From assembly GCA_963667465.2 (NCBI GenBank), contig CAXXDN010000001.1, forward strand, positions 928,001 to 992,000: 64,000 nucleotides of DNA, written 5' to 3'. Shown one piece after another: positions 1,982 through 28,939 of the stretch; position 1 is the first letter of the stretch; every line of letters starts with the position of its first letter. The position numbers and the translations under genes are program-made. The notes below the pieces were generated by a model, which was not told where the DNA came from, did no database searches, and saw only the letters and a list, made by a program, of their open reading frames with translations. The DNA comes from Dehalococcoidia bacterium. Its GTDB lineage: Bacteria > Chloroflexota > Dehalococcoidia > UBA2979.

Positions 1982-3421
1982 TTACGCGGTGGAAGCAGGA
2001 CCCTCCTCGGTCGGTGCGGCGGTCTCGGCCGCCTCGGGCGGCGCCCCGTTGCCGTCCGGCGCGCCGTTGGTGGTCTGGACGCGTGGCAGGCTCTTGAGCG
2101 TGCCGAGGATGTCGATCCCGGTCAGGCTCTCGACGAGGTCCGGAAGCTGGGACACGACATTGGTGACATCGCCGGTCAGCTTGCTGGCGCCCATGGAGCC
2201 GTCCCCGCTGATCATGACGATCCGGTCCGTCTGACCGAGCGGCTGCGCGACGGCCGCGGCAACTTCCGGCAACGACTCGAGCAGCGTGTCGATGACAGCC
2301 GCCTGACCGTACTCCTTCCAGGCATCTGCCTTTGTTCGCATCGCCTCCGCTTCCGCGAGACCCTTGGCGCGAATCGCGTCGGCTTCCGCCTCGCCGCGGG
2401 CGCGGATTGCATCGGCCTCGCCGTTACCGTTGAGCGTGATCGCTTCGGCTTCGGCTTCGGCCTCGGCGACCACCCGGGTCTTCTCACCGGCCGCGATCGT
2501 TTCGAGGCGGTAGCGCTCGGCCTCGGCCGGGCGCTTCACGCCTGCCTCCAGCTCGCGCTCGCGTCGTGCGATCTCCTGCTGCTCGACCTCGATCTGCTTG
2601 GTGCGCTCGACGACCTCGACCTGGAGCTCCTGCTCGCGGATCTCCTGCTGCGTCATCGCCTCCTGCAGGGCGTAGGCAAGCTCCGCCTCGGCCCGGCGGG
2701 CGTTCGTCTCCTGCTCGTAGCGGGCCTTCTGAACGGCGAAGTCGCGTTCCGCCTCGGCGATCCTGGTGTCTGCGTCGTAGCGGGCCTGCTCCTGGTCGCG
2801 GTTCGCCTGCGCCTCGACGATCGTGGCGTCGCGCTGCGCCTCGGCACGCCGGATCGCCGCGTCTCGGGCGGCCTCGGCCTCGCCGATCTCGGCGTCGCGC
2901 GTGACCTCGGCCGTGCGCTTGCGTCCGAGCGCGTCGAGGTAGCCCTGTTCGTCGCGGATGTCGCGGATCGTGAAGCTCACGATCTCGAGGCCCATGTTCG
3001 CCATGTGCGGCCCGGCCACCTCGGACACGCTTTCGGCGAACGATTCGCGGTCCTGGTAGATCGCCTCGACGGTCATCGTTCCGAGGATCGCGCGCTGCGC
3101 GCCCTCGAGTGTCTGGAGGGCGACCTGCGCGATCTCGGACTCGCGCTTTCCGATGAATTGCTGTGCGGCCGTGCGGATCGCTTCCTCCGCCCGCGCCACC
3201 TTGACCTGCGCCACCCCGTCCACGGTGACGGCGACGCCCTCTTTCGTGTAGACGTTCGCCGTCTCGACAGGCAGGGTCATGACCTCGAGTGAGATGCTCT
3301 GCGCCTTGTAGAAGAACGGGACGACGATGACGCGGCCGCCGACCGTCACCTTCGGTCGGGAGCCGCCCCCCGACCTGATCACGGCCTCGTTGGGCCCTGC
3401 TACCTTGATGATTGGAGCCAT
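1982..3421 (-). CDS. Flotillin / SPFH domain protein
   Basis: PNEAVIRSG N-terminus, SPFH core (QTLEGAQRAILGTMTVE, MGLEIVSFTIRDI), AEA-rich coiled coil; SD GAGGAG upstream of ATG 3421. Confidence 0.92.
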   Translation of the reverse strand: MAPIIKVAGPNEAVIRSGGGSRPKVTVGGRVIVVPFFYKAQSISLEVMTLPVETANVYTKEGVAVTVDGVAQVKVARAEEAIRTAAQQFIGKRESEIAQVALQTLEGAQRAILGTMTVEAIYQDRESFAESVSEVAGPHMANMGLEIVSFTIRDIRDEQGYLDALGRKRTAEVTRDAEIGEAEAARDAAIRRAEAQRDATIVEAQANRDQEQARYDADTRIAEAERDFAVQKARYEQETNARRAEAELAYALQEAMTQQEIREQELQVEVVERTKQIEVEQQEIARRERELEAGVKRPAEAERYRLETIAAGEKTRVVAEAEAEAEAITLNGNGEADAIRARGEAEADAIRAKGLAEAEAMRTKADAWKEYGQAAVIDTLLESLPEVAAAVAQPLGQTDRIVMISGDGSMGASKLTGDVTNVVSQLPDLVESLTGIDILGTLKSLPRVQTTNGAPDGNGAPPEAAETAAPTEEGPASTA

Positions 3422-3463
3422 ATGCACTTCTCCTCACGTTGCCGGTCACCCAGCGAGTGCCGG

Positions 3464-4894
3464 TTACTTGTTTCCTCGTTTGATTATCCTGCGGATCCGG
3501 TCCGCCACCGCCGACACTAACACTCGCGTTCTCGATCCCGATTCCGGGAACGAGTCCGACACCTTGATCACCCCGCCGCTGTAGACGCTGATCACGCGCA
3601 CGTCCTGGCCGGCGCTGATGCTCGTCCATTCCTCGGTGGTGGCGGACCATTCCCGGTCGCCGATGCGGACCGTGCCGGACGGCGCCAGATCGGAGAGCGC
3701 GACCCCGCGCGCGCCGATCATCGCTTCGTCGGGCGTGCCGACGAAGGCGTCGGCCGACCCTCCCTCTCTCGCGAGGTTGAACAGCGTGAACAGCGCTCCG
3801 GCAAGCACCACCGTCATGGCGCCGATCAGCCAGCGGTCCACCTCGACCGCCGGCTCCGGGATCACCGACGACTCGAAGAACCCGCCGAAGATCAGGAAGG
3901 AGCCGACCAGGAACGAGACCACGCCGCCGGCGCCAAAGGCGCCGATGCCGGGCGCCTGCAGCTCGAAGAAGAACAGGCCCATCGCGAACAGGATGAGCGC
4001 CACGCCAACCCAGCTGACCGGGAGTTGCCCGAACGCGACGAAGGCGAGCAGCAGCGCGATCACTCCGACCACGCCCGGGCCGAACACGCCGGGGCTGAAG
4101 AACTCCGCCAGCAGCGCCAGGCTCCCAAGGCTGAGCAGGAGGTAGGCGATGTTCGGGTCGGCGATCAGTCCCAGGAAGCGCTCGAGCATCGTCTTCCTGA
4201 CTTCGCGGACGGGCAGGTCGGTCGGGCTCACCACAACGGTCCCGCTGGCGGTCTCGGCCGTACGGCCATCGACCTGGTTCAGCAGGTCGGCCATGTCGGT
4301 GGCGATCAGGTCGATGATCCCGAGGGCGATTGCCTCGTCCGCCGAGTAGGCGAGTGCTCTCGTGACCGTGTCCTCAAGAGCGGCGGCGTTGCGATTCCGC
4401 TGTTCCGAGATTCCCCTGATGAGCGCGCGGATGTCCTCGTTGACCTTGTCCCTCAGCGTTGGGGGCAGTTCCCCACCCGACGAGCTCACCGGCGACGCAG
4501 CGCCGATGTTGGTGGCGGGGGCCATCACGGCGAAGTTGGCGGCGACCGTAATGAACGTGCCGGCCGACGCCGCCTGCGCACCGGCAGGCGAGACGAAAAC
4601 GGCCACGGGCGTCCGGGACCCGAGGATCGCCTCGATCATGTTGCGCATGGAGTCGGCGCGCCCTCCGGGCGTGTCGAGCTCGATCACAATCAGCGCGGCG
4701 CCGTCGTCGGCAGCCTTGTCGATCGCCCTCGAGAGGTAGCGCTCGCTGACGGCGTCGATCACGCCGTCGAGCTTGATGAGGGCGACGTGATCGCCGTCCG
4801 CGCGTGCGGACCCGGGCCAGTGCGCAAACAACAGCAGGAGCAGGCCCGCAGCCACAGAGGCGAGGCCTATGCCGCGCGCTGTGCCTCTGGTCAT
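3464..4894 (-). CDS. nfeD: Long-form NfeD membrane-bound ClpP-class serine protease
   Basis: Signal peptide, LDTPGG and AASAGTFI motifs, NIGAASPV, TM block, C-terminal OB domain; immediately upstream of the SPFH gene. Confidence 0.9.
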   Translation of the reverse strand: MTRGTARGIGLASVAAGLLLLLFAHWPGSARADGDHVALIKLDGVIDAVSERYLSRAIDKAADDGAALIVIELDTPGGRADSMRNMIEAILGSRTPVAVFVSPAGAQAASAGTFITVAANFAVMAPATNIGAASPVSSSGGELPPTLRDKVNEDIRALIRGISEQRNRNAAALEDTVTRALAYSADEAIALGIIDLIATDMADLLNQVDGRTAETASGTVVVSPTDLPVREVRKTMLERFLGLIADPNIAYLLLSLGSLALLAEFFSPGVFGPGVVGVIALLLAFVAFGQLPVSWVGVALILFAMGLFFFELQAPGIGAFGAGGVVSFLVGSFLIFGGFFESSVIPEPAVEVDRWLIGAMTVVLAGALFTLFNLAREGGSADAFVGTPDEAMIGARGVALSDLAPSGTVRIGDREWSATTEEWTSISAGQDVRVISVYSGGVIKVSDSFPESGSRTRVLVSAVADRIRRIIKRGNK

Positions 4895-23003: not shown

Positions 23004-24878
23004 CTACTCCTCGAGCCGCACGCCGTCGGAGTGCCAGCGCAGGTACTCGGCGCTCGCCCAGCCCTCGAGGCCGTCGTCCGTGCGGAGGTGCAGCCAGGGT
23101 TGCGGGTAGAGGACGAAGTCGTCCGTTTCGGCGACGGCCCCGTTCGGGAGGCAGGCGAGGGTCGGCGCGTCGAGCGAGGCCTTCTCGCGGAGGTTCAGGC
23201 ACGGATCGGCGACGACCTCGACCAGGAGCTGGTCGTCGAAGGGCGGCTGCTCGATTATTGGCGCGAGTGGCAGAGGCGGATACACGTTGAGACCTTCCTG
23301 CGAGTGGAAAAAGGTCGTTCGCACAAGCAGAGTGCCGCCGGTGGCGCCCAGCGCGGCGCGTTCCTGCCGAGCGAGGAACGGCTGCCAAGGAGGATCGGGG
23401 ATGGGCGCGCTGGGATCCCCGAAGGAGATGGATGCGAGCACATCCCCGGCCCGATTCACAACCTGCGGGGGGTAAAGGGAGAAGAAGCGGTCTCGGTCGT
23501 CCGGGGAAGGCCATCCAGGCGCCTGCTCCCATGTCCCCCGGAGCGTGGCGATTCGTGGGCCGCGGTGCGTGCCTACCACGATTCCGGAACTGCCGGCGAG
23601 CCACACGCCAGCCACGTCACCATGAACTCCGAACTCGGCGAGCCCGAATGAATAGACGCTCTTGACTCGCAGGATCTCCTCGCCCGTCGTTGCGTCGAAG
23701 ATCGACGAGATCCTGTCGTCGGCGAGCACGCTCGATGTCGCGGCAGCAAGCATGCGCCCGTCCGCAGAAATCCGCGGGAAGAGGCCTCCCCACGATCCAG
23801 GGATCGGACTCAGGCACCGTATCGTACTGTCGGACAGGAGCGTGCCCCTGAGGTCATAGCGAACCACGCGGCAGGTCACATTGCCGGTATCGGCGATGAA
23901 TGCAACGAGGTCGTCCAGGGGATCGACTTGATAGAGGATTTCCCCTGTCTTGTGAGCCGGGACCGTCTTCCACGGAAGTACCCACGAGTGGACCTCGGGG
24001 TTGGCCTCGTCCTCGAGGTTCACGAGGTGAAAGCGATCGCCCGGCTCACACTCGACGCACTCACGGACGAGGATGTAGCCGCCGCTGGGGCTGGTGAAGC
24101 GCTAGCCGGCCGGAAGATCGAGCTGCGCCACGGGCCGCAACTCGGCGTCCATCGCCACGAAAGCGCCGGAGCTCGCGAGGCGGAAGAGCAGCCGCTCGTC
24201 GGGTCCGGTTCCCCACCATAGATCGAACTCAATCCTGCTCCGATCCCACGTGTACGTGCGCCCGGTCTGCCGGTCGTGCAGGACTCCCTGGCCCGCCCAA
24301 CTCACGAAGCGATTGCTCGGCGAGGCATCGAGGTCGTCGGCGGCGTTCCGGGCTGCTTCGCGCTCCCTCTCCGGCAGGGCGGCGAGCGAGCGCACCCACG
24401 CCTCCACTTCGCCCGTCGCCACGTCGAGCAGGAACAGGCCAGGGTCCCACGGCGCCTCCTCGCCTGCCTCGTAGCGAGCGTGCGTGAGGCCGGCCGCCGC
24501 CAGCGCCTCGGCGGTGTTGACCTCGCGGATGCTGAGGTCCTCGGCGGTGATCAGCGGCGCCGGGGTTGCGGTCGGCGTGGGCGACGGAGTTGGCGAGGGC
24601 GTCACGGCTGGTGTCGGTGCGGGCGCGGGCGTTGTGGTTGGCGTGGGAGTGGCTGCCGGCGATGCGACGGTCGTCGGAGTTGGCGAGGGCGTCGTGGTGG
24701 GAGTCGGAGCTGGAGGTGCCTCGGGCGTGGGTGTCGGCGTCGCGGCGGGCGAGGCTGCCGCGGGCGGCGGGGGCTCCTCGGGCCCGCCGTCGCACGCCGC
24801 CAGACCGGCCGCGAGCGAGAGCGCGAGGACGGCCGCGAGCAGGGGTGGCAGCGAGCGTCGCGTGCGGTGTACGAGCAT
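23004..24878 (-). pseudogene. Surface lipoprotein with Pro/Thr-rich linker and C-terminal SH3b-like domain, interrupted by one in-frame TAG (24102-24104)
   Basis: Lipobox LAAC, PT repeats; ORFs 24102-24878 and 23004-24023 share a frame and join through PAG*RFTSPSGGYILVR...; C-terminus CLNLRE...W.HLRTDDGLEGWASAEYL. Confidence 0.75.
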
Positions 24879-24983
24879 CGCGGTCCCCTCCCCGGCTACC
24901 TGAGGTTAGACGACTGTCTCGGCGTGATGGTTCCGGCGAGCGGCAGGGTTCGTCCCTCAGGAGCCTGTCGTGGGTTCGGCGAG

Positions 24984-25001
24984 CCCCCTCACCCCCGCCC
25001 T
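24984..25001 (+). repeat. Left half of a REP-like element split by IS110
   Basis: CCCCCTCACCCCCGCC-CT; the stretch CCCCTCACCCCCGCCC is identical to the reverse complement of the third tandem unit (~18505-18520). Confidence 0.85.
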
Positions 25002-25009
25002 AATGGGGT

Positions 25010-25205
25010 TCGACCGGACCCTGGAGCGATCTGGGAGACTGGTCTTGGACCGGCCGGCCGGTGAGCACTGCCCCTCCCCGAGACACTGCGATCTCCAGGG
25101 AGAGACCGTGCCCCGGCTGGTGCGTCCGGGTGGTCCACAGCACTCCTGGGGTGTCGTGCCCGAGAGCACTGGTCCATTAGGCCGTCGCAGGACCAGCCCG
25201 GCAGG
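25010..25205 (+). ncRNA. Bridge RNA (target-binding loop ~25047-25127, donor-binding loop ~25126-25201); ends approximate
   Basis: Guides CCCCTCCC (25071-78) and GGGAGAG (25098-104) match the target; GGGGTGTC (25148-55) and CCATTAG (25174-80) match the donor junction; each pair flanks an inner hairpin and is closed by outer stems. Confidence 0.85.
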
Positions 25206-25244
25206 TCGCAAACAGCAGCACGAAGCGCAGGAAAGCGAGGCACG

Positions 25245-26468
25245 ATGACCCTCTACGTCGGTGACGACTGGTCCGAAGACCACCACGATGTCCAGCTCAT
25301 GAACGAGGCCGGCGAACGGCTCGCCGCCAGGCGGCTGCCCGAGGGCGTCGCGGGCGTCGCCGTGCTGCACGAACTGGTTGCCGAGCACGCCTCAGACCCG
25401 GGCGCGGTCGTGGTCGGCATCGAGACCGACCGCGGACCCTGGGTCACGGCCCTGCTCGCGGCCGGCTACCGCGTCTACGCGATCAACCCCCGCTCGGCGG
25501 CGCGCTACCGTGAGCGTCACCACCTGGGCGGCGCCAAGTCCGACGCCGCCGACGCGAAGCTGCTCGCCGACCTCGTGCGCACCGACCGCCACAACCACCG
25601 TCCGCTGGCCGGCGACAGCGACGAGGCTGCCGCGGTGCGCATCCTCGCCCGCGCCCACCAGCAGCTGATCTGGGACCGCGTGCGCCAGACCAACCGGCTG
25701 CGCAACGCCCTCAGGGAGTATTTCCCGGCTGCCCTGCAGGCCTTCCCCAGCCTCGCGCACGGCGACGCCCTGGGCGTGCTGGCGCGGGCGAGCGAGCCGC
25801 GCGAGGCGGCGCGCCTGAGCACGTCGAAGATCCGCTCGGCGCTGCGCCGCGGCGGACGTCAGCGCAACCTCGAGCGGCGCGCCGCCGCGGTGCGCGACGC
25901 GCTGCGCTCCCCGCAACTCGAGGCGCCGCCTGCCGTGAGCCGGGCGTTCGCCGCGAGCACCCGCGCGGCGGTCGCGCAGATCAGCGAGATCAACCGTCAG
26001 CTTACGGAGCTCGAGGCCGCGCTCACGAGCCATTTTGAGCAGCACCCGGACGCCGCAATCTACCGTTCCCTGCCCGGTCTCGGTGTCGTGCTCGGCGCCC
26101 GGGTGCTCGGCGAGTTCGGGGACGACCCCGAACGCTACGAGTCGGCGAAGTCCCGCAGGAACTACGCCGGCACCTCGCCGCTCACCGTAGCATCGGGCCG
26201 CAAGCGCAGCGTGCGCGCCCGCTTCGTGCGCAACCGCCGGCTCGCCGACGCCGTGGACCGCTGGGCGCTCTGCTCGCTGCAGGCGAGCCCCGGCTGCCAT
26301 GACTTCTACCACCGCCGCCGCGCCGCGGGCGACCTCCACCACCAGGCGCTGCGCGCTCTCGGCAACCGCCTCGTCGGCTACCTCCACGGCTGCCTGAAGG
26401 CACGTCGCCCCTACGACGAGGCCACCGCCTGGGCGCACCGCCACGACCGCGAACAGCTCGCCGCTTGA
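25245..26468 (+). CDS. IS110 DEDD recombinase/transposase
   Basis: YVGDDWSEDHHD, VGIET, KSDAADA (DEDD RuvC-like domain); SLPGLG, YAGTSP...SG (Tnp-domain catalytic Ser), ALGNRL. Confidence 0.95.
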   Translation: MTLYVGDDWSEDHHDVQLMNEAGERLAARRLPEGVAGVAVLHELVAEHASDPGAVVVGIETDRGPWVTALLAAGYRVYAINPRSAARYRERHHLGGAKSDAADAKLLADLVRTDRHNHRPLAGDSDEAAAVRILARAHQQLIWDRVRQTNRLRNALREYFPAALQAFPSLAHGDALGVLARASEPREAARLSTSKIRSALRRGGRQRNLERRAAAVRDALRSPQLEAPPAVSRAFAASTRAAVAQISEINRQLTELEAALTSHFEQHPDAAIYRSLPGLGVVLGARVLGEFGDDPERYESAKSRRNYAGTSPLTVASGRKRSVRARFVRNRRLADAVDRWALCSLQASPGCHDFYHRRRAAGDLHHQALRALGNRLVGYLHGCLKARRPYDEATAWAHRHDREQLAA

Positions 26469-26491
26469 CGCCTTAGCACCCTGGGGTGTCT
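26465..26491 (+). promoter_or_regulatory. -35 half of the IS110 circle-junction promoter
   Basis: TTGACG (26465-70) overlaps the transposase stop; joined to the left end it gives TTGACG-N18-TCTAAT upstream of the bridge RNA. Confidence 0.65.
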
Positions 26492-26513
26492 CTCCCCCGG
26501 GAGAGGGGGCCGG
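26490..26513 (+). repeat. Right half of the REP-like element split by IS110
   Basis: CT-CTCCCCCGGGAGAGGGGGCCGG matches the right half of other REP copies in the window. Confidence 0.85.
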
Positions 26514-26641
26514 AGAGGGGAGGCGGCGGCCGGGTGCGGCGATGTGACTTCAGGAGCCGGTCGTGGGTCTGGCGCACGCGCAGCGCGTAGTATCGGAGCG
26601 CTGGCTGGCGGCGCGCGACGGACGTGGCGAGGAACGGCGAG

Positions 26642-28939
26642 ATGACGACAACCGAACGACCCCCGGTGAGCAGCGGCTATGCCGTCGTCGGCACGCGGCC
26701 GGTGCGCCACGACGGCTCGGAGAAGGTCACCGGCGAGGCCCGCTACGGAGCCGACATCCGGCTGCCCGGCATGCTCCACGGGAGAATCCTGAGGAGCCCG
26801 CACGCCCACGCGCGCATCAGGTCCATCGACACGAGCCGGGCGGAGGCGCTCCCCGGCGTGTTCGCCGTGATGACCTCGGCAGACGTCCCGATCATCGGCG
26901 ATCAGGCTCTCGACCTGGCGCTCGTTCGCGGAAACATGCGGTTGATGGCCGAGCACGTCATGGCCCACAGGACGGCCCTGTACAAGGGCCACGCGGTAGC
27001 GGCGGTTGCTGCGAATAGTCCCCACGTCGCCGAGGACGCCCTGGCGCTGATCGAGGTGGACTACGAGGTGCTCCCGGCGGTCCTTTCGCTGGCCGAGGCC
27101 ACGGCCGCCGGCGCGCCGATCATCCACGAGGACCTGACGACCTTCTTCAGGCTCGCGCGCTTCGCCCGGGGGGACGACACCGGGGTGCGCGGCAATGTCG
27201 CCTCCCACATCCAGCACAAGCTCGGCGATGTCGAGGAGGGCTTCCGGCAGGCCGATGTGGTCGTGGAGCGGGAGTTCTTCACGGAGACCGTCCACCAGGG
27301 CTACATCGAGCCGCACGCGGCCACGGCCACCTGGGCGCGTGACGGCCGCCTCACCGTCTATACCTGCACGCAGGGGGCCTTCCCGATCCGCGCGGCCACG
27401 GCCGCGATGTTGGACCTGCCCGAGTCGATGGTGAAGGTCGTGCCGACCGAGATCGGCGGTGGGTTCGGGGCCAAGCTCGTGGCGTACGTGGAGCCCGTCG
27501 CCGCGATCCTCTCCCGCAAGAGCGGCCGGCCCGTGCAGGTGGTGATGACCCGCAAGGACGTGTTCGAGGGCACCGGACCTGCCTCGGCGACCCAGGCGCG
27601 CACGAAGATCGGCGCGACCCGGGATGGCAGGATCACCGCCGCCCAGGTCACGCTGACCTTCGAGGCCGGCGCCTTCCCCGGCTCGGCCGTCGGCGGGGGC
27701 ACGCTCTGCGCCACCGGTCCCTACAACATCGAGAATCTCCTTGTCGACGGCTACGACGTGGTGGTCAACAAGAACAAGACGCAGGCCTACCGCGCGCCGG
27801 GACAGCCGCAGGGCGCCTTCGCCGTCGAACCCGTCATCGATGAGCTCGCGGAGCTGCTGGGCATCGACCCCCTCGAGTTCCGGCTCCTGAACGCCGCCAG
27901 ACAAGGCGACCGCATGCCCAACGGTGTTATGCACCTCCGCCTGGGCATCGAGGAGCTGGAAGCGGCGATGAAGGCCCACGACCACTACAACGCGCCGCTC
28001 GGCGGCCCCAACCGCGGGCGAGGCGTGGCCGTCGGCTTCCGCTGGCAGGGAGGTCAGAGCTCAGCGGCGACGATCCACGTGAACAGCGATGGCACGATCA
28101 ACCTCGTCACCGGCTCGGTGGACATCGGAGGCTCACGCACCGCCGTGGCGATGCAGGCCGCCGAGGTGCTGGGCCTGAGCGCCGAGGATGTGACGCCCAC
28201 GGTGGTCGACACCGACACGATCGCGCTCACCGGCGCCACCAGCGGCAGCCACACGGCCTTCGACACGGGCCTCGCGGCGATCGAGGCGGCGCAGGAAGTG
28301 ATCCGGCAACTGGGCACGCGGGCGGCGGCGATCTGGGAGGTCGACGAGCGAGACGTGACCTTCGAGGACGGCACGTTCAGCTGCGCCGGGAATCCGGCGC
28401 TGAAGTTGACGTTCAGGGAGCTGGCGGCCGAGTTGCCGGGCAGCGGCGGCCCGGTGACCTGCTCGGTCTCGGTCCCGACCACGGGCGTCGGCCCCGTCAT
28501 CGCGGGCAACATCGTGGACGTCGAGGTCGACCCTGCGACCGGCAAGGTGCAGATCCTGCGCTACAGCGCGTTCATGGACGTGGGCACGGCGGTGCATCCC
28601 AGCTACGTCGAGGGCCAGATCCAGGGCGGCACCGTGCAGGGTATCGGCTGGGCGCTGAACGAGGAGTATTGCTACGACGCCGAGGGGGCGATGCTGAACA
28701 GCAGCTTCCTCGACTACCGGATGCCGACCACGCTGGACATCCCGATGATCGATGCGGTCATGATCGAGGTGCCCAACCCCCAGCACCCGTTCGGCCTGCG
28801 CGGCGTCGGCGAAGCCTCGATCATCCCGCCGCTCGCCGCCGTCGCGAACGCGGTATCGAACGCCATCGGCGTGCGCATCAACCGGCTGCCGATCACCCCC
28901 GGCGCGGTCCTCGACGCGATTGAGTCGAAGGACGGCTAG
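26642..28939 (+). CDS. Xanthine dehydrogenase family molybdopterin-binding large subunit
   Basis: KVTGEARY, RSPHAHARI, HQGYIEPH, IGGGFGAK, AYRAPG, VEGQIQGGTVQGIG, RGVGE. Confidence 0.92.
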   Translation: MTTTERPPVSSGYAVVGTRPVRHDGSEKVTGEARYGADIRLPGMLHGRILRSPHAHARIRSIDTSRAEALPGVFAVMTSADVPIIGDQALDLALVRGNMRLMAEHVMAHRTALYKGHAVAAVAANSPHVAEDALALIEVDYEVLPAVLSLAEATAAGAPIIHEDLTTFFRLARFARGDDTGVRGNVASHIQHKLGDVEEGFRQADVVVEREFFTETVHQGYIEPHAATATWARDGRLTVYTCTQGAFPIRAATAAMLDLPESMVKVVPTEIGGGFGAKLVAYVEPVAAILSRKSGRPVQVVMTRKDVFEGTGPASATQARTKIGATRDGRITAAQVTLTFEAGAFPGSAVGGGTLCATGPYNIENLLVDGYDVVVNKNKTQAYRAPGQPQGAFAVEPVIDELAELLGIDPLEFRLLNAARQGDRMPNGVMHLRLGIEELEAAMKAHDHYNAPLGGPNRGRGVAVGFRWQGGQSSAATIHVNSDGTINLVTGSVDIGGSRTAVAMQAAEVLGLSAEDVTPTVVDTDTIALTGATSGSHTAFDTGLAAIEAAQEVIRQLGTRAAAIWEVDERDVTFEDGTFSCAGNPALKLTFRELAAELPGSGGPVTCSVSVPTTGVGPVIAGNIVDVEVDPATGKVQILRYSAFMDVGTAVHPSYVEGQIQGGTVQGIGWALNEEYCYDAEGAMLNSSFLDYRMPTTLDIPMIDAVMIEVPNPQHPFGLRGVGEASIIPPLAAVANAVSNAIGVRINRLPITPGAVLDAIESKDG

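Follow-up and report, generated by a model that had tools for sequence, protein, structure and literature searches.

The stretch analysed here, called the window throughout, comprises 64,000 nucleotides from a Dehalococcoidia bacterium (assembly GCA_963667465.2, contig CAXXDN010000001.1, positions 928,001 to 992,000 of the forward strand). At 25000-26491 on its forward strand it very probably carries an intact, autonomous insertion sequence (IS) of the IS110 group, with a DEDD/serine bridge recombinase and a bridge RNA in its left end. The element has been recently active and represents a known kind of bridge recombinase, described in 2024, rather than a novel system; by homology, we infer that it would be transcribed, form a circle, catalyse recombination and be reprogrammable. 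An earlier reading made from the letters of the window alone (the sequence-only reading) had proposed such a system with four readable guide segments, and to this we add two handshake guides, a -35-like box, 40 empty target sites and the observation that the core positions of the left target guide read CC.

Copies, boundaries and insertion sites

The element measures 1492 bp when the CT core is counted at both junctions, with a left end of 245 nt and a right end of 23 nt after the stop codon, as read directly from the sequence. Its own genome (2,966,484 bases in 2 contigs, about 70.5-71% GC) contains 10 full-length copies, nine of which are identical, and the tenth carries a single substitution at element position 124, outside the guides. 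All 10 lie in different surrounding DNA, each within a separate copy of a repetitive extragenic palindromic (REP)-like repeat. Sequence identity among these same-genome copies ends exactly at CT on both sides, so that the boundaries of the element are fixed independently. CT stands at both junctions in 10 of 10 copies, and this 2-nt core is all that the junctions have in common, as there are no terminal inverted repeats. The boundaries, the target CCCCGCC-CT-CTCCC and the element ends GGGGTGT and AATGG had been named in the sequence-only reading; they were read again directly from the window, and the 10 copies confirm the boundaries.

The point of insertion is the 5' arm of the palindromic repeat, which is roughly 45 nt long. 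Exact empty copies of the joined target, CCCCGCCCTCTCCC (CCCCGCC-CT-CTCCC), occur 40 times in the genome, and the left half of the REP-like repeat also stands 5' of these 40 sites. No empty copy of CCCCTCC-CT-CTCCC, the site that would match the left target guide exactly, was found in the own genome, where the sole such site is occupied. Among the 10 copies the left flank is CCCCGCC five times and CCCAACC, CGCCCCC, CCCCCCC, CCCCTCC and CCCCACC once each; the right flank is CTCCC in nine and AACCC, a 3/5 match, in one.

It is very improbable that the element is now immobile, its copies being left from an old burst or from segmental duplication. Such a view could draw on the fact that neither a circle junction nor a locus-specific empty site was seen, and no joint of right end to left end is present among the listed contig joints of runs X1, X2, X6 and X9. 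It is however difficult to reconcile with 9 of 10 copies being identical over 1492 bp, the open reading frame (ORF) being intact and each copy having its own flanks. Congeneric genomes also carry multi-copy variants of their own: 8 of 18 genomes of the same genus match, and 7 of these contain full-length variants (85-92% identity), most in large numbers. We favour a bridge-RNA element whose recent expansion has given 10 copies in a genome of 2.97 Mb.

The REP-like family counts at least 40 exact 14-nt cores, and its palindrome loop is often GCGA. Some members stand in short arrays with a spacing of 80-97 nt (for example 120721/120801 on contig C1 and 917200/917297/917393 on the minus strand of contig C2; 0-based). 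A second target-like site, CCCCCCC-CT-CTCCC (C1 minus strand, 0-based 197548), lies directly upstream of the left end of copy C1(-)197571. In the congeneric genomes G017 (C4:1226-2446 and 2914-4134) and G014 (C4 ~1151648-1171017) several copies are found within a few kb, and these groups are insertion clusters where REP sites are dense.

Two other candidates were set aside. Contig joints marked 'skips 1491', considered as excision at the locus, were read instead as other REP copies, since their shorter side is only 23-24 nt and an extra letter lies between. Short subterminal inverted repeats beside the donor (ACCC at 26478-81 and GGGT at 25006-09, found by eye) showed no convincing covariation in relatives.

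Guides, flanks and the predicted bridge RNA

The left end has the layout of IS621, in which a 5' hairpin is followed by a target-binding loop and a donor-binding loop (Table 1). A direct reading of 24700-26800 bore out both bipartite loops and their closing stems where the sequence-only reading had placed them. In the donor loop, the 5' guide repeats the right end of the element, and CCATTAG (25174-80) is the reverse complement of CTAATGG at 25000-06. In the 64-kb window the donor-loop pattern (an 8-mer, 10-30 nt and a 7-mer) has a single occurrence, at 25148-25180, and none of 100 shuffles gave any match. The target-loop pattern is likewise found once (25071-25104), where 0.04 occurrences are expected (4 of 100 shuffles). 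Compared with the 10 own insertion sites, the left target guide (LTG) agrees at 7/7 positions in one case, at 6/7 in seven and at 5/7 in two.

Table 1. Coordinates in the window of the element, its insertion site and the predicted parts of the bridge RNA
Feature	Start	End	Strand	Remarks
REP-like repeat, left half	24981	24999	+	last 7 nt (24993-24999, CCCCGCC) are the left target (LT) and left flank
Core dinucleotide CT, left junction	25000	25001	+	
Right donor (RD) AATGG	25002	25006	+	CTAATGG in 77/78 left ends; TTAATGG in L127
5' stem-loop (predicted)	25012	25044	+	outer stem GACCGG/CTGGTC; helices 1-2; also recovered by RNAalifold
Target-binding loop module (predicted)	25054	25120	+	outer stem 25054-68 with 25108-20; closing stems CCGGCCGG/CCGGCTGG (25054-61/25113-20) and GCAC/GTGC (25065-68/25108-11); inner hairpin 25080-95 with stem GAGA/TCTC (25080-83/25092-95)
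Left target guide (LTG), putative	25071	25079	+	CCCCTCC 25071-77 and core positions CC 25078-79; CCCCTCCC at 25071-78
Right target guide (RTG), putative	25098	25106	+	GGGAG 25098-102, core complement AG 25103-04, handshake AC 25105-06
Donor-binding loop module (predicted)	25126	25201	+	outer stem CCGGGTGGTCC/GGACCAGCCCGG (25126-36/25190-201) with one bulged G; middle stem 25140-43/25184-88; inner hairpin 25156-69 with stem GTGC/GCAC (25156-59/25166-69)
Left donor guide (LDG), putative	25148	25155	+	GGGGTGTC, that is GGGGTGT and core C; identical to element end 26483-90
Right donor guide (RDG), putative	25174	25182	+	CCATT 25174-78, core complement AG 25179-80, handshake GC 25181-82
Bridge recombinase gene, 407 aa	25245	26468	+	RuvC-like DEDD domain, long coiled coil with extra helical insert, Tnp domain with S317
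-35-like box TTGACG	26465	26470	+	overlaps the stop codon; would make up a promoter with TCTAAT across the circle junction
Left donor (LD) GGGGTGT	26483	26489	+	right element end
Core dinucleotide CT, right junction	26490	26491	+	
REP-like repeat, right half	26492	26514	+	first 5 nt (26492-96, CTCCC) are the right target (RT) and right flank; has palindrome arms

The guides were next compared with the flanks of related elements. A species-representative collection yielded 243 stretches that encode a relative, of which the best 80 were kept. Leaving out L113 (at the start of a contig, with the 3' part of the gene alone) and L050 and L056 (no recognisable left end), and adding the copy of the window itself, gave 78 left ends. 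Both flanks were available for 66 of the 78, which represent 20 distinct target loops; the others are eight for which the right end was not found (L071, L074, L078, L106, L108, L117, L120 and L126) and four with a flank cut by the contig end (L121, L122, L124 and L125). On average the left flank matches its own guide at 5.05 of 7 positions and non-own guides at 2.65, and the right flank matches at 4.69 of 5 positions as against 2.00. Restricting the comparison to 14 representative target loops, which differ at 4 or more of the 12 guide positions, 134.2 of 168 positions match, as compared with 61.4 for permuted guide-flank pairings (sd 7.4, maximum 102.7), and none of 100000 permutations reached the observed value. 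The guide TCGGTTC/TTCTT is found with six different flanks that have only the guide positions in common.

These comparisons bear on another explanation, according to which this is a real IS110 insertion sequence but its REP-like target is found through recognition of the palindrome by the protein or by DNA structure, the agreement between loops and flanks being a by-product of C-rich sequence. All 10 insertions do lie in one repeat family with the palindrome beside the core, the LTG is imperfect against the commonest site, and for ISPpu10 a stem-loop in the target has been reported as a second determinant. Recognition of a palindrome would however not account for relatives with other target loops that sit in unrelated sites fitting their own guides, such as the six flanks just mentioned, nor for a guide-flank agreement that no permutation attained. 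The REP segment folded as single-stranded DNA is also no better than its shuffles (z -0.35), the palindrome being visible all the same. We consider this explanation highly improbable and retain guide pairing as the very probable basis of target choice. The claim of the sequence-only reading that the element has a target and donor specificity of its own is supported: guides follow flanks and the donor guide follows the element end.

The fit of the LTG in the clade that targets the REP-like repeat deserves separate mention. The guides CCCCTCC, CCTTGCC and CCTCGCC of this clade all differ from the dominant CCCCGCC site, and at its second core position the guide varies between A, C and T; the RTG and both handshake guides remain exact. 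That the LTG is deliberately imperfect in this clade is a doubtful, though not negligible, proposition. If it were so by design, the adjacent palindrome could supply part of the specificity, as a structure gate of the sort reported for ISPpu10; alternatively, selection could favour the mismatch as a brake on transposition, the symbiont genome being small.

The donor side, on the other hand, is nearly constant, with guide TGGGGTGTC paired with right end GGGGTGTCT and guide CCATTAG with left end CTAATGG. In Actinomycetota relatives the guide and the right end alike read GGGATGT (G to A), except in L127. Target loops thus diversify while the donor loop is fixed, and natural reprogramming becomes visible in sequence. 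At least 14 natural target specificities on one nearly constant donor would provide a ready set for testing guide rules in a high-GC ortholog.

According to the published model for IS621, each core complement is followed on its 3' side by two bases which, once strands have been exchanged, pair with the non-cognate DNA at positions 7 and 6. The corresponding bases of the target loop, AC at 25105-06, are complementary to donor positions 7 and 6 (T and G); across relatives both pairs are present in 61 of 70 copies, and the remaining 9 have one pair and one wobble. For the donor loop (GC at 25181-82), the first base pairs with target position 7 in 74 of 76 copies and forms a wobble in 2. This base becomes C in L118, L120 and L126, where the target has G. 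An extension of the RTG beyond 5 nt was also considered; it predicts T and G at target positions 15-16, where the flanks vary, and the guide was therefore kept at 5 nt.

The left end is predicted to encode a bridge RNA of ~190 nt, lying at about 25012-25201. To assess its structure, 37 distinct left ends were aligned and 42 pairs were counted over the 5' hairpin and the target and donor stems. In the alignment 93.9% of cells are paired, as compared with 26-46% when partners are slid by 1-3 columns; 18 of the 42 pairs have changed on both sides (5-10 when slid), and 82 cells carry such changes (10-21 when slid). None of 500 shuffles gave a covariation score as high as that observed. Among individual stems, helix 1 of the 5' stem-loop is paired in 95.7% of cells with both-side changes in 2 of 5 pairs, helix 3, the outer target stem, in 98.1% with changes in 5 of 13, and helix 4, the inner target stem, in 100% with changes in 3 of 4. 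Helix 5, the outer donor stem, is the weakest (81.7%), with both-side changes in 7 of 11 pairs. Helix 6 changes from A-U to G-C in 6 sequences, and helix 7, the inner donor stem, is uninformative because it never varies. RNAalifold independently recovers the outer and inner stems of the target loop. The stems contain many G-U pairs, which are possible on the + strand only, an indication that an RNA is read from this strand. The idea that the guide-like segments act not as RNA but as double-stranded DNA sites, i.e. subterminal recombinase-binding repeats, is hardly credible: it accords with the want of a promoter-like site in the integrated copy, but DNA sites would need no internal pairing, whereas the stems are kept by compensatory changes, their G-U pairs would be A-C mismatches on the other strand, and the parts are laid out as in the bridge RNA of IS621, which appears as RNA in solved complexes.

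A scan of the integrated element found no sigma-70-like promoter and no intrinsic terminator. When right and left ends are joined, TTGACG stands 18 nt before the hexamer TCTAAT (26489-91 plus 25002-04), and from these two a promoter would form only in the circle junction. In each of the 27 distinct right-end types a TTGnCn box stands 17-18 nt ahead of this hexamer (TTGAC in 26, TTGCC in one), a spacing that is kept even in right ends of 41-105 nt, where the box no longer codes. That the circle junction of IS621 reassembles a promoter is established (PMC11208158). Among the 21 listed runs (Logan contigs) that contain the stretch, none is an RNA run.

By homology to IS621, the element would be excised as a circle in which right and left ends are joined at one CT, and the right-end -35 box, set beside the -10-like hexamer, would drive the RNA and the recombinase. 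The first loop of the RNA would bind the target: LTG CCCCTCC would pair with the bottom strand at CCCCNCC, and RTG GGGAG together with AG would pair with the top strand at CT-CTCCC. The second loop would pair with the donor junction GGGGTGT-CT-AATGG. At the CT core, recombinase tetramers may then swap strands, after which the two-base handshake guides AC and GC would pair with the partner DNA.

Recombinase and weight of the evidence

Pfam assigns the protein to both IS110 domains: DEDD_Tnp_IS110 (PF01548) at 6.9e-38 over residues 5-161 and the full length of the profile, and Transposase_20 (PF02371) at 7.1e-11 for the C-terminal Tnp domain. In an alignment of 15 sequences (A1; 29-100% identity), from which L114 and L127 were kept out owing to in-frame stops, D8, E60, D100, D103, S317 and G318 are invariant, in agreement with the earlier proposal that the DEDD residues and the Tnp serine are retained. 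A single-sequence phmmer search of PDB gave no IS110 match even at E <= 10, and a profile of the 15 sequences was therefore needed. This profile detected IS621 (8wt6_A, E 1.8e-18) and ISCro4 (9t56_A, 9.2e-18) over both domains. The catalytic residues of IS621 are D11, E60, D102 and D105, with roles described in PMC11208158; D8, D100 and D103 share profile columns with IS621 catalytic residues, and S317-G318 align to the ESG of IS621.

The AlphaFold model (predicted local distance difference test, pLDDT, 86.9; predicted template modelling score, pTM, 0.79) has low confidence in the serine loop 313-328 and shows an extra helical insert between two long coiled-coil helices. In the structure search the ten best PDB matches consist entirely of ISCro4 and IS621 chains, with E ~1e-12, 18% identity and template modelling (TM) scores of 0.68-0.72 on target length, the best for ISCro4/IS621 being 0.71-0.72; TIGR-Tas and Nop5 proteins rank after these chains.

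A number of observations weigh against an intact bridge-RNA element. The LTG mismatches the commonest target at position 5 (T versus G), and its core positions are CC rather than CT. In register, the left match is only 1/7 for L091 and L092 and 2/7 for L103, and the AACCC right flanks of L048, L049 and one own copy match at 3/5. As the relatives are kin sequences, the shuffle counts are not probabilities. No Rfam 15 family was found on the left end at E <= 1. The minimum free energy fold of 25010-25244 does not surpass its shuffles in stability (z = 0.09) and pairs the two target guides together, so that the bridge RNA structure is supported by covariation and not by thermodynamics, energy alone being uninformative. 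Folding combined with covariation analysis had been suggested with the sequence-only reading, and of the two the covariation, in the stems as well as between guides and flanks, bears the proposal out, whereas the single-sequence fold does not. The junction hexamer TCTAAT has no canonical A at position 2 and would fail the rule of the promoter scanner, for which reason the circle-junction promoter is put forward as putative. Lastly, HMMER places the catalytic E of IS621 as an insert beside E60, one gap placement off.

The sole Rfam match above gathering score is Ms_AS-4, a small RNA of Actinobacteria, which lies antisense within the recombinase ORF (26069-26150, minus strand; 65.1 bits against a gathering score of 50). 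It overlies a conserved segment of the Tnp domain, and it may be a real antisense RNA or a mere reflection of conserved coding sequence.

Known systems, distribution and neighbourhood

The bridge recombinase and RNA of IS621 from E. coli are described in Durrant 2024 (PMC11208160) and Hiraizumi 2024 (PMC11208158; PDB 8WT6), and thousands of IS110 orthologs with predicted bridge RNAs have been available since 2024 (PMC11208160). The present element shares with IS621 a three-domain recombinase with DEDD plus Ser-Gly, a left-end RNA with the order 5' hairpin, target loop and donor loop, a CT core, a 14-nt target (7 + 2 + 5), two-base handshake guides and a natural target of REP type; the promoter split across the circle junction, known from IS621, has a putative counterpart here. 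The 5' sides of the guides have top-strand sense and the 3' sides are complementary, as in IS621 (PMC11208160); the likeness to IS621 claimed in the sequence-only reading is thus borne out, as the four guides fit the Durrant 2024 model both in order and in strand sense. The two differ in several respects. Identity is ~18% in structural alignment; the protein has 407 aa as against 326 aa in IS621, with ~90 extra residues between the coiled-coil helices (profile positions 155-247 unaligned; model helices 161-220); the RTG extends 5 nt beyond the core as against 4 in wild-type IS621; the LTG has core CC and the position-5 mismatch to the commonest target; and the host is high in GC, about 70.5-71%.

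ISCro4 (IS622) of Citrobacter rodentium (Perry 2025 preprint; PDB 9T56) is the best structural match, with E 1.3e-12 and TM 0.71 on target length. It is a close relative of IS621, far in sequence from the present protein, and is active in human cells, whereas the present element is known here from its sequence. ISPpu9 and ISPpu10 of Pseudomonas putida, REP-targeting IS110 elements likened here by their manner of insertion, are also multi-copy, with each copy in a repetitive palindromic intergenic element, and for ISPpu10 the stem-loop of the target is the additional determinant referred to above. The IS1111 group has the same recombinase family; its members, however, are described as encoding the bridge RNA in a right end that is long and as having 7-17 bp subterminal inverted repeats, whereas the present element has a right end of 23 nt and an RNA structure in its left end. 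The element shows all the sequence-level features that define the IS110 group, and not those that define the IS1111 group.

Neither Durrant 2024 nor the Perry 2025 preprint has 'Dehalococc' or 'Chloroflex' in its main text. Their supplementary ortholog tables may list the element or a near relative; it can for that reason not be claimed as not yet described. No study of this element was met in the portions of the literature on IS110, sponge and Chloroflexi consulted. As a compact ortholog very distant from IS621, with a readable native target and donor, a 5-nt RTG and exact handshakes, it is a candidate for ortholog screens. A high-GC ortholog may be of practical interest, the known mechanism being unchanged.

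Matches at E <= 1e-30 were found in 10 of 40 other genomes sampled around the present one, and a protein database gave at least 8000 matches (all 8000 candidates scored), the named ones being 'IS110 family transposase'. The best 80 of the 243 relatives come mostly from records titled 'MAG: Dehalococcoidia bacterium', and the stretch itself is present in runs labelled sponge metagenome and in others whose organism is given as a code. Relatives at 67-71% protein identity occur in Actinomycetota, namely in Smaragdicoccus niigatensis and in metagenome-assembled genomes (MAGs) labelled Mycobacterium, Pseudonocardiaceae and Acidimicrobiales. These relatives (L114, L117-L119, L121-L125 and L127) have the same donor ends, with in-frame stops in L114 and L127. 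The occurrence of relatives with the same donor ends in Actinomycetota suggests that the lineage of the element may have been transferred across phyla.

Within one Dehalococcoidia MAG (L073-L078), five of six copies have an identical 14-nt left flank, and in the three of these five for which the right end was found this end is identical as well. On the basis of this flank identity, the relative seems to sit inside another repeated sequence.

In the window, the element is flanked by a minus-strand gene for a 258-aa protein and by a plus-strand gene for a molybdopterin oxidoreductase. The 258-aa ORF (24102-24878) matched no Pfam family in a Pfam search; it has a signal-like N-terminus and a long stretch rich in Pro, Thr and Ala. 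Elsewhere in the genome an eleventh, partial copy (C2:1903831-1904564) is cut off at the end of contig C2. Its right flank is the same as that of copy C1:3265-4756 and nearby REP sites repeat too; this partial copy may be an assembly overlap with the latter, and contigs C1 and C2 probably abut or overlap at an IS copy.

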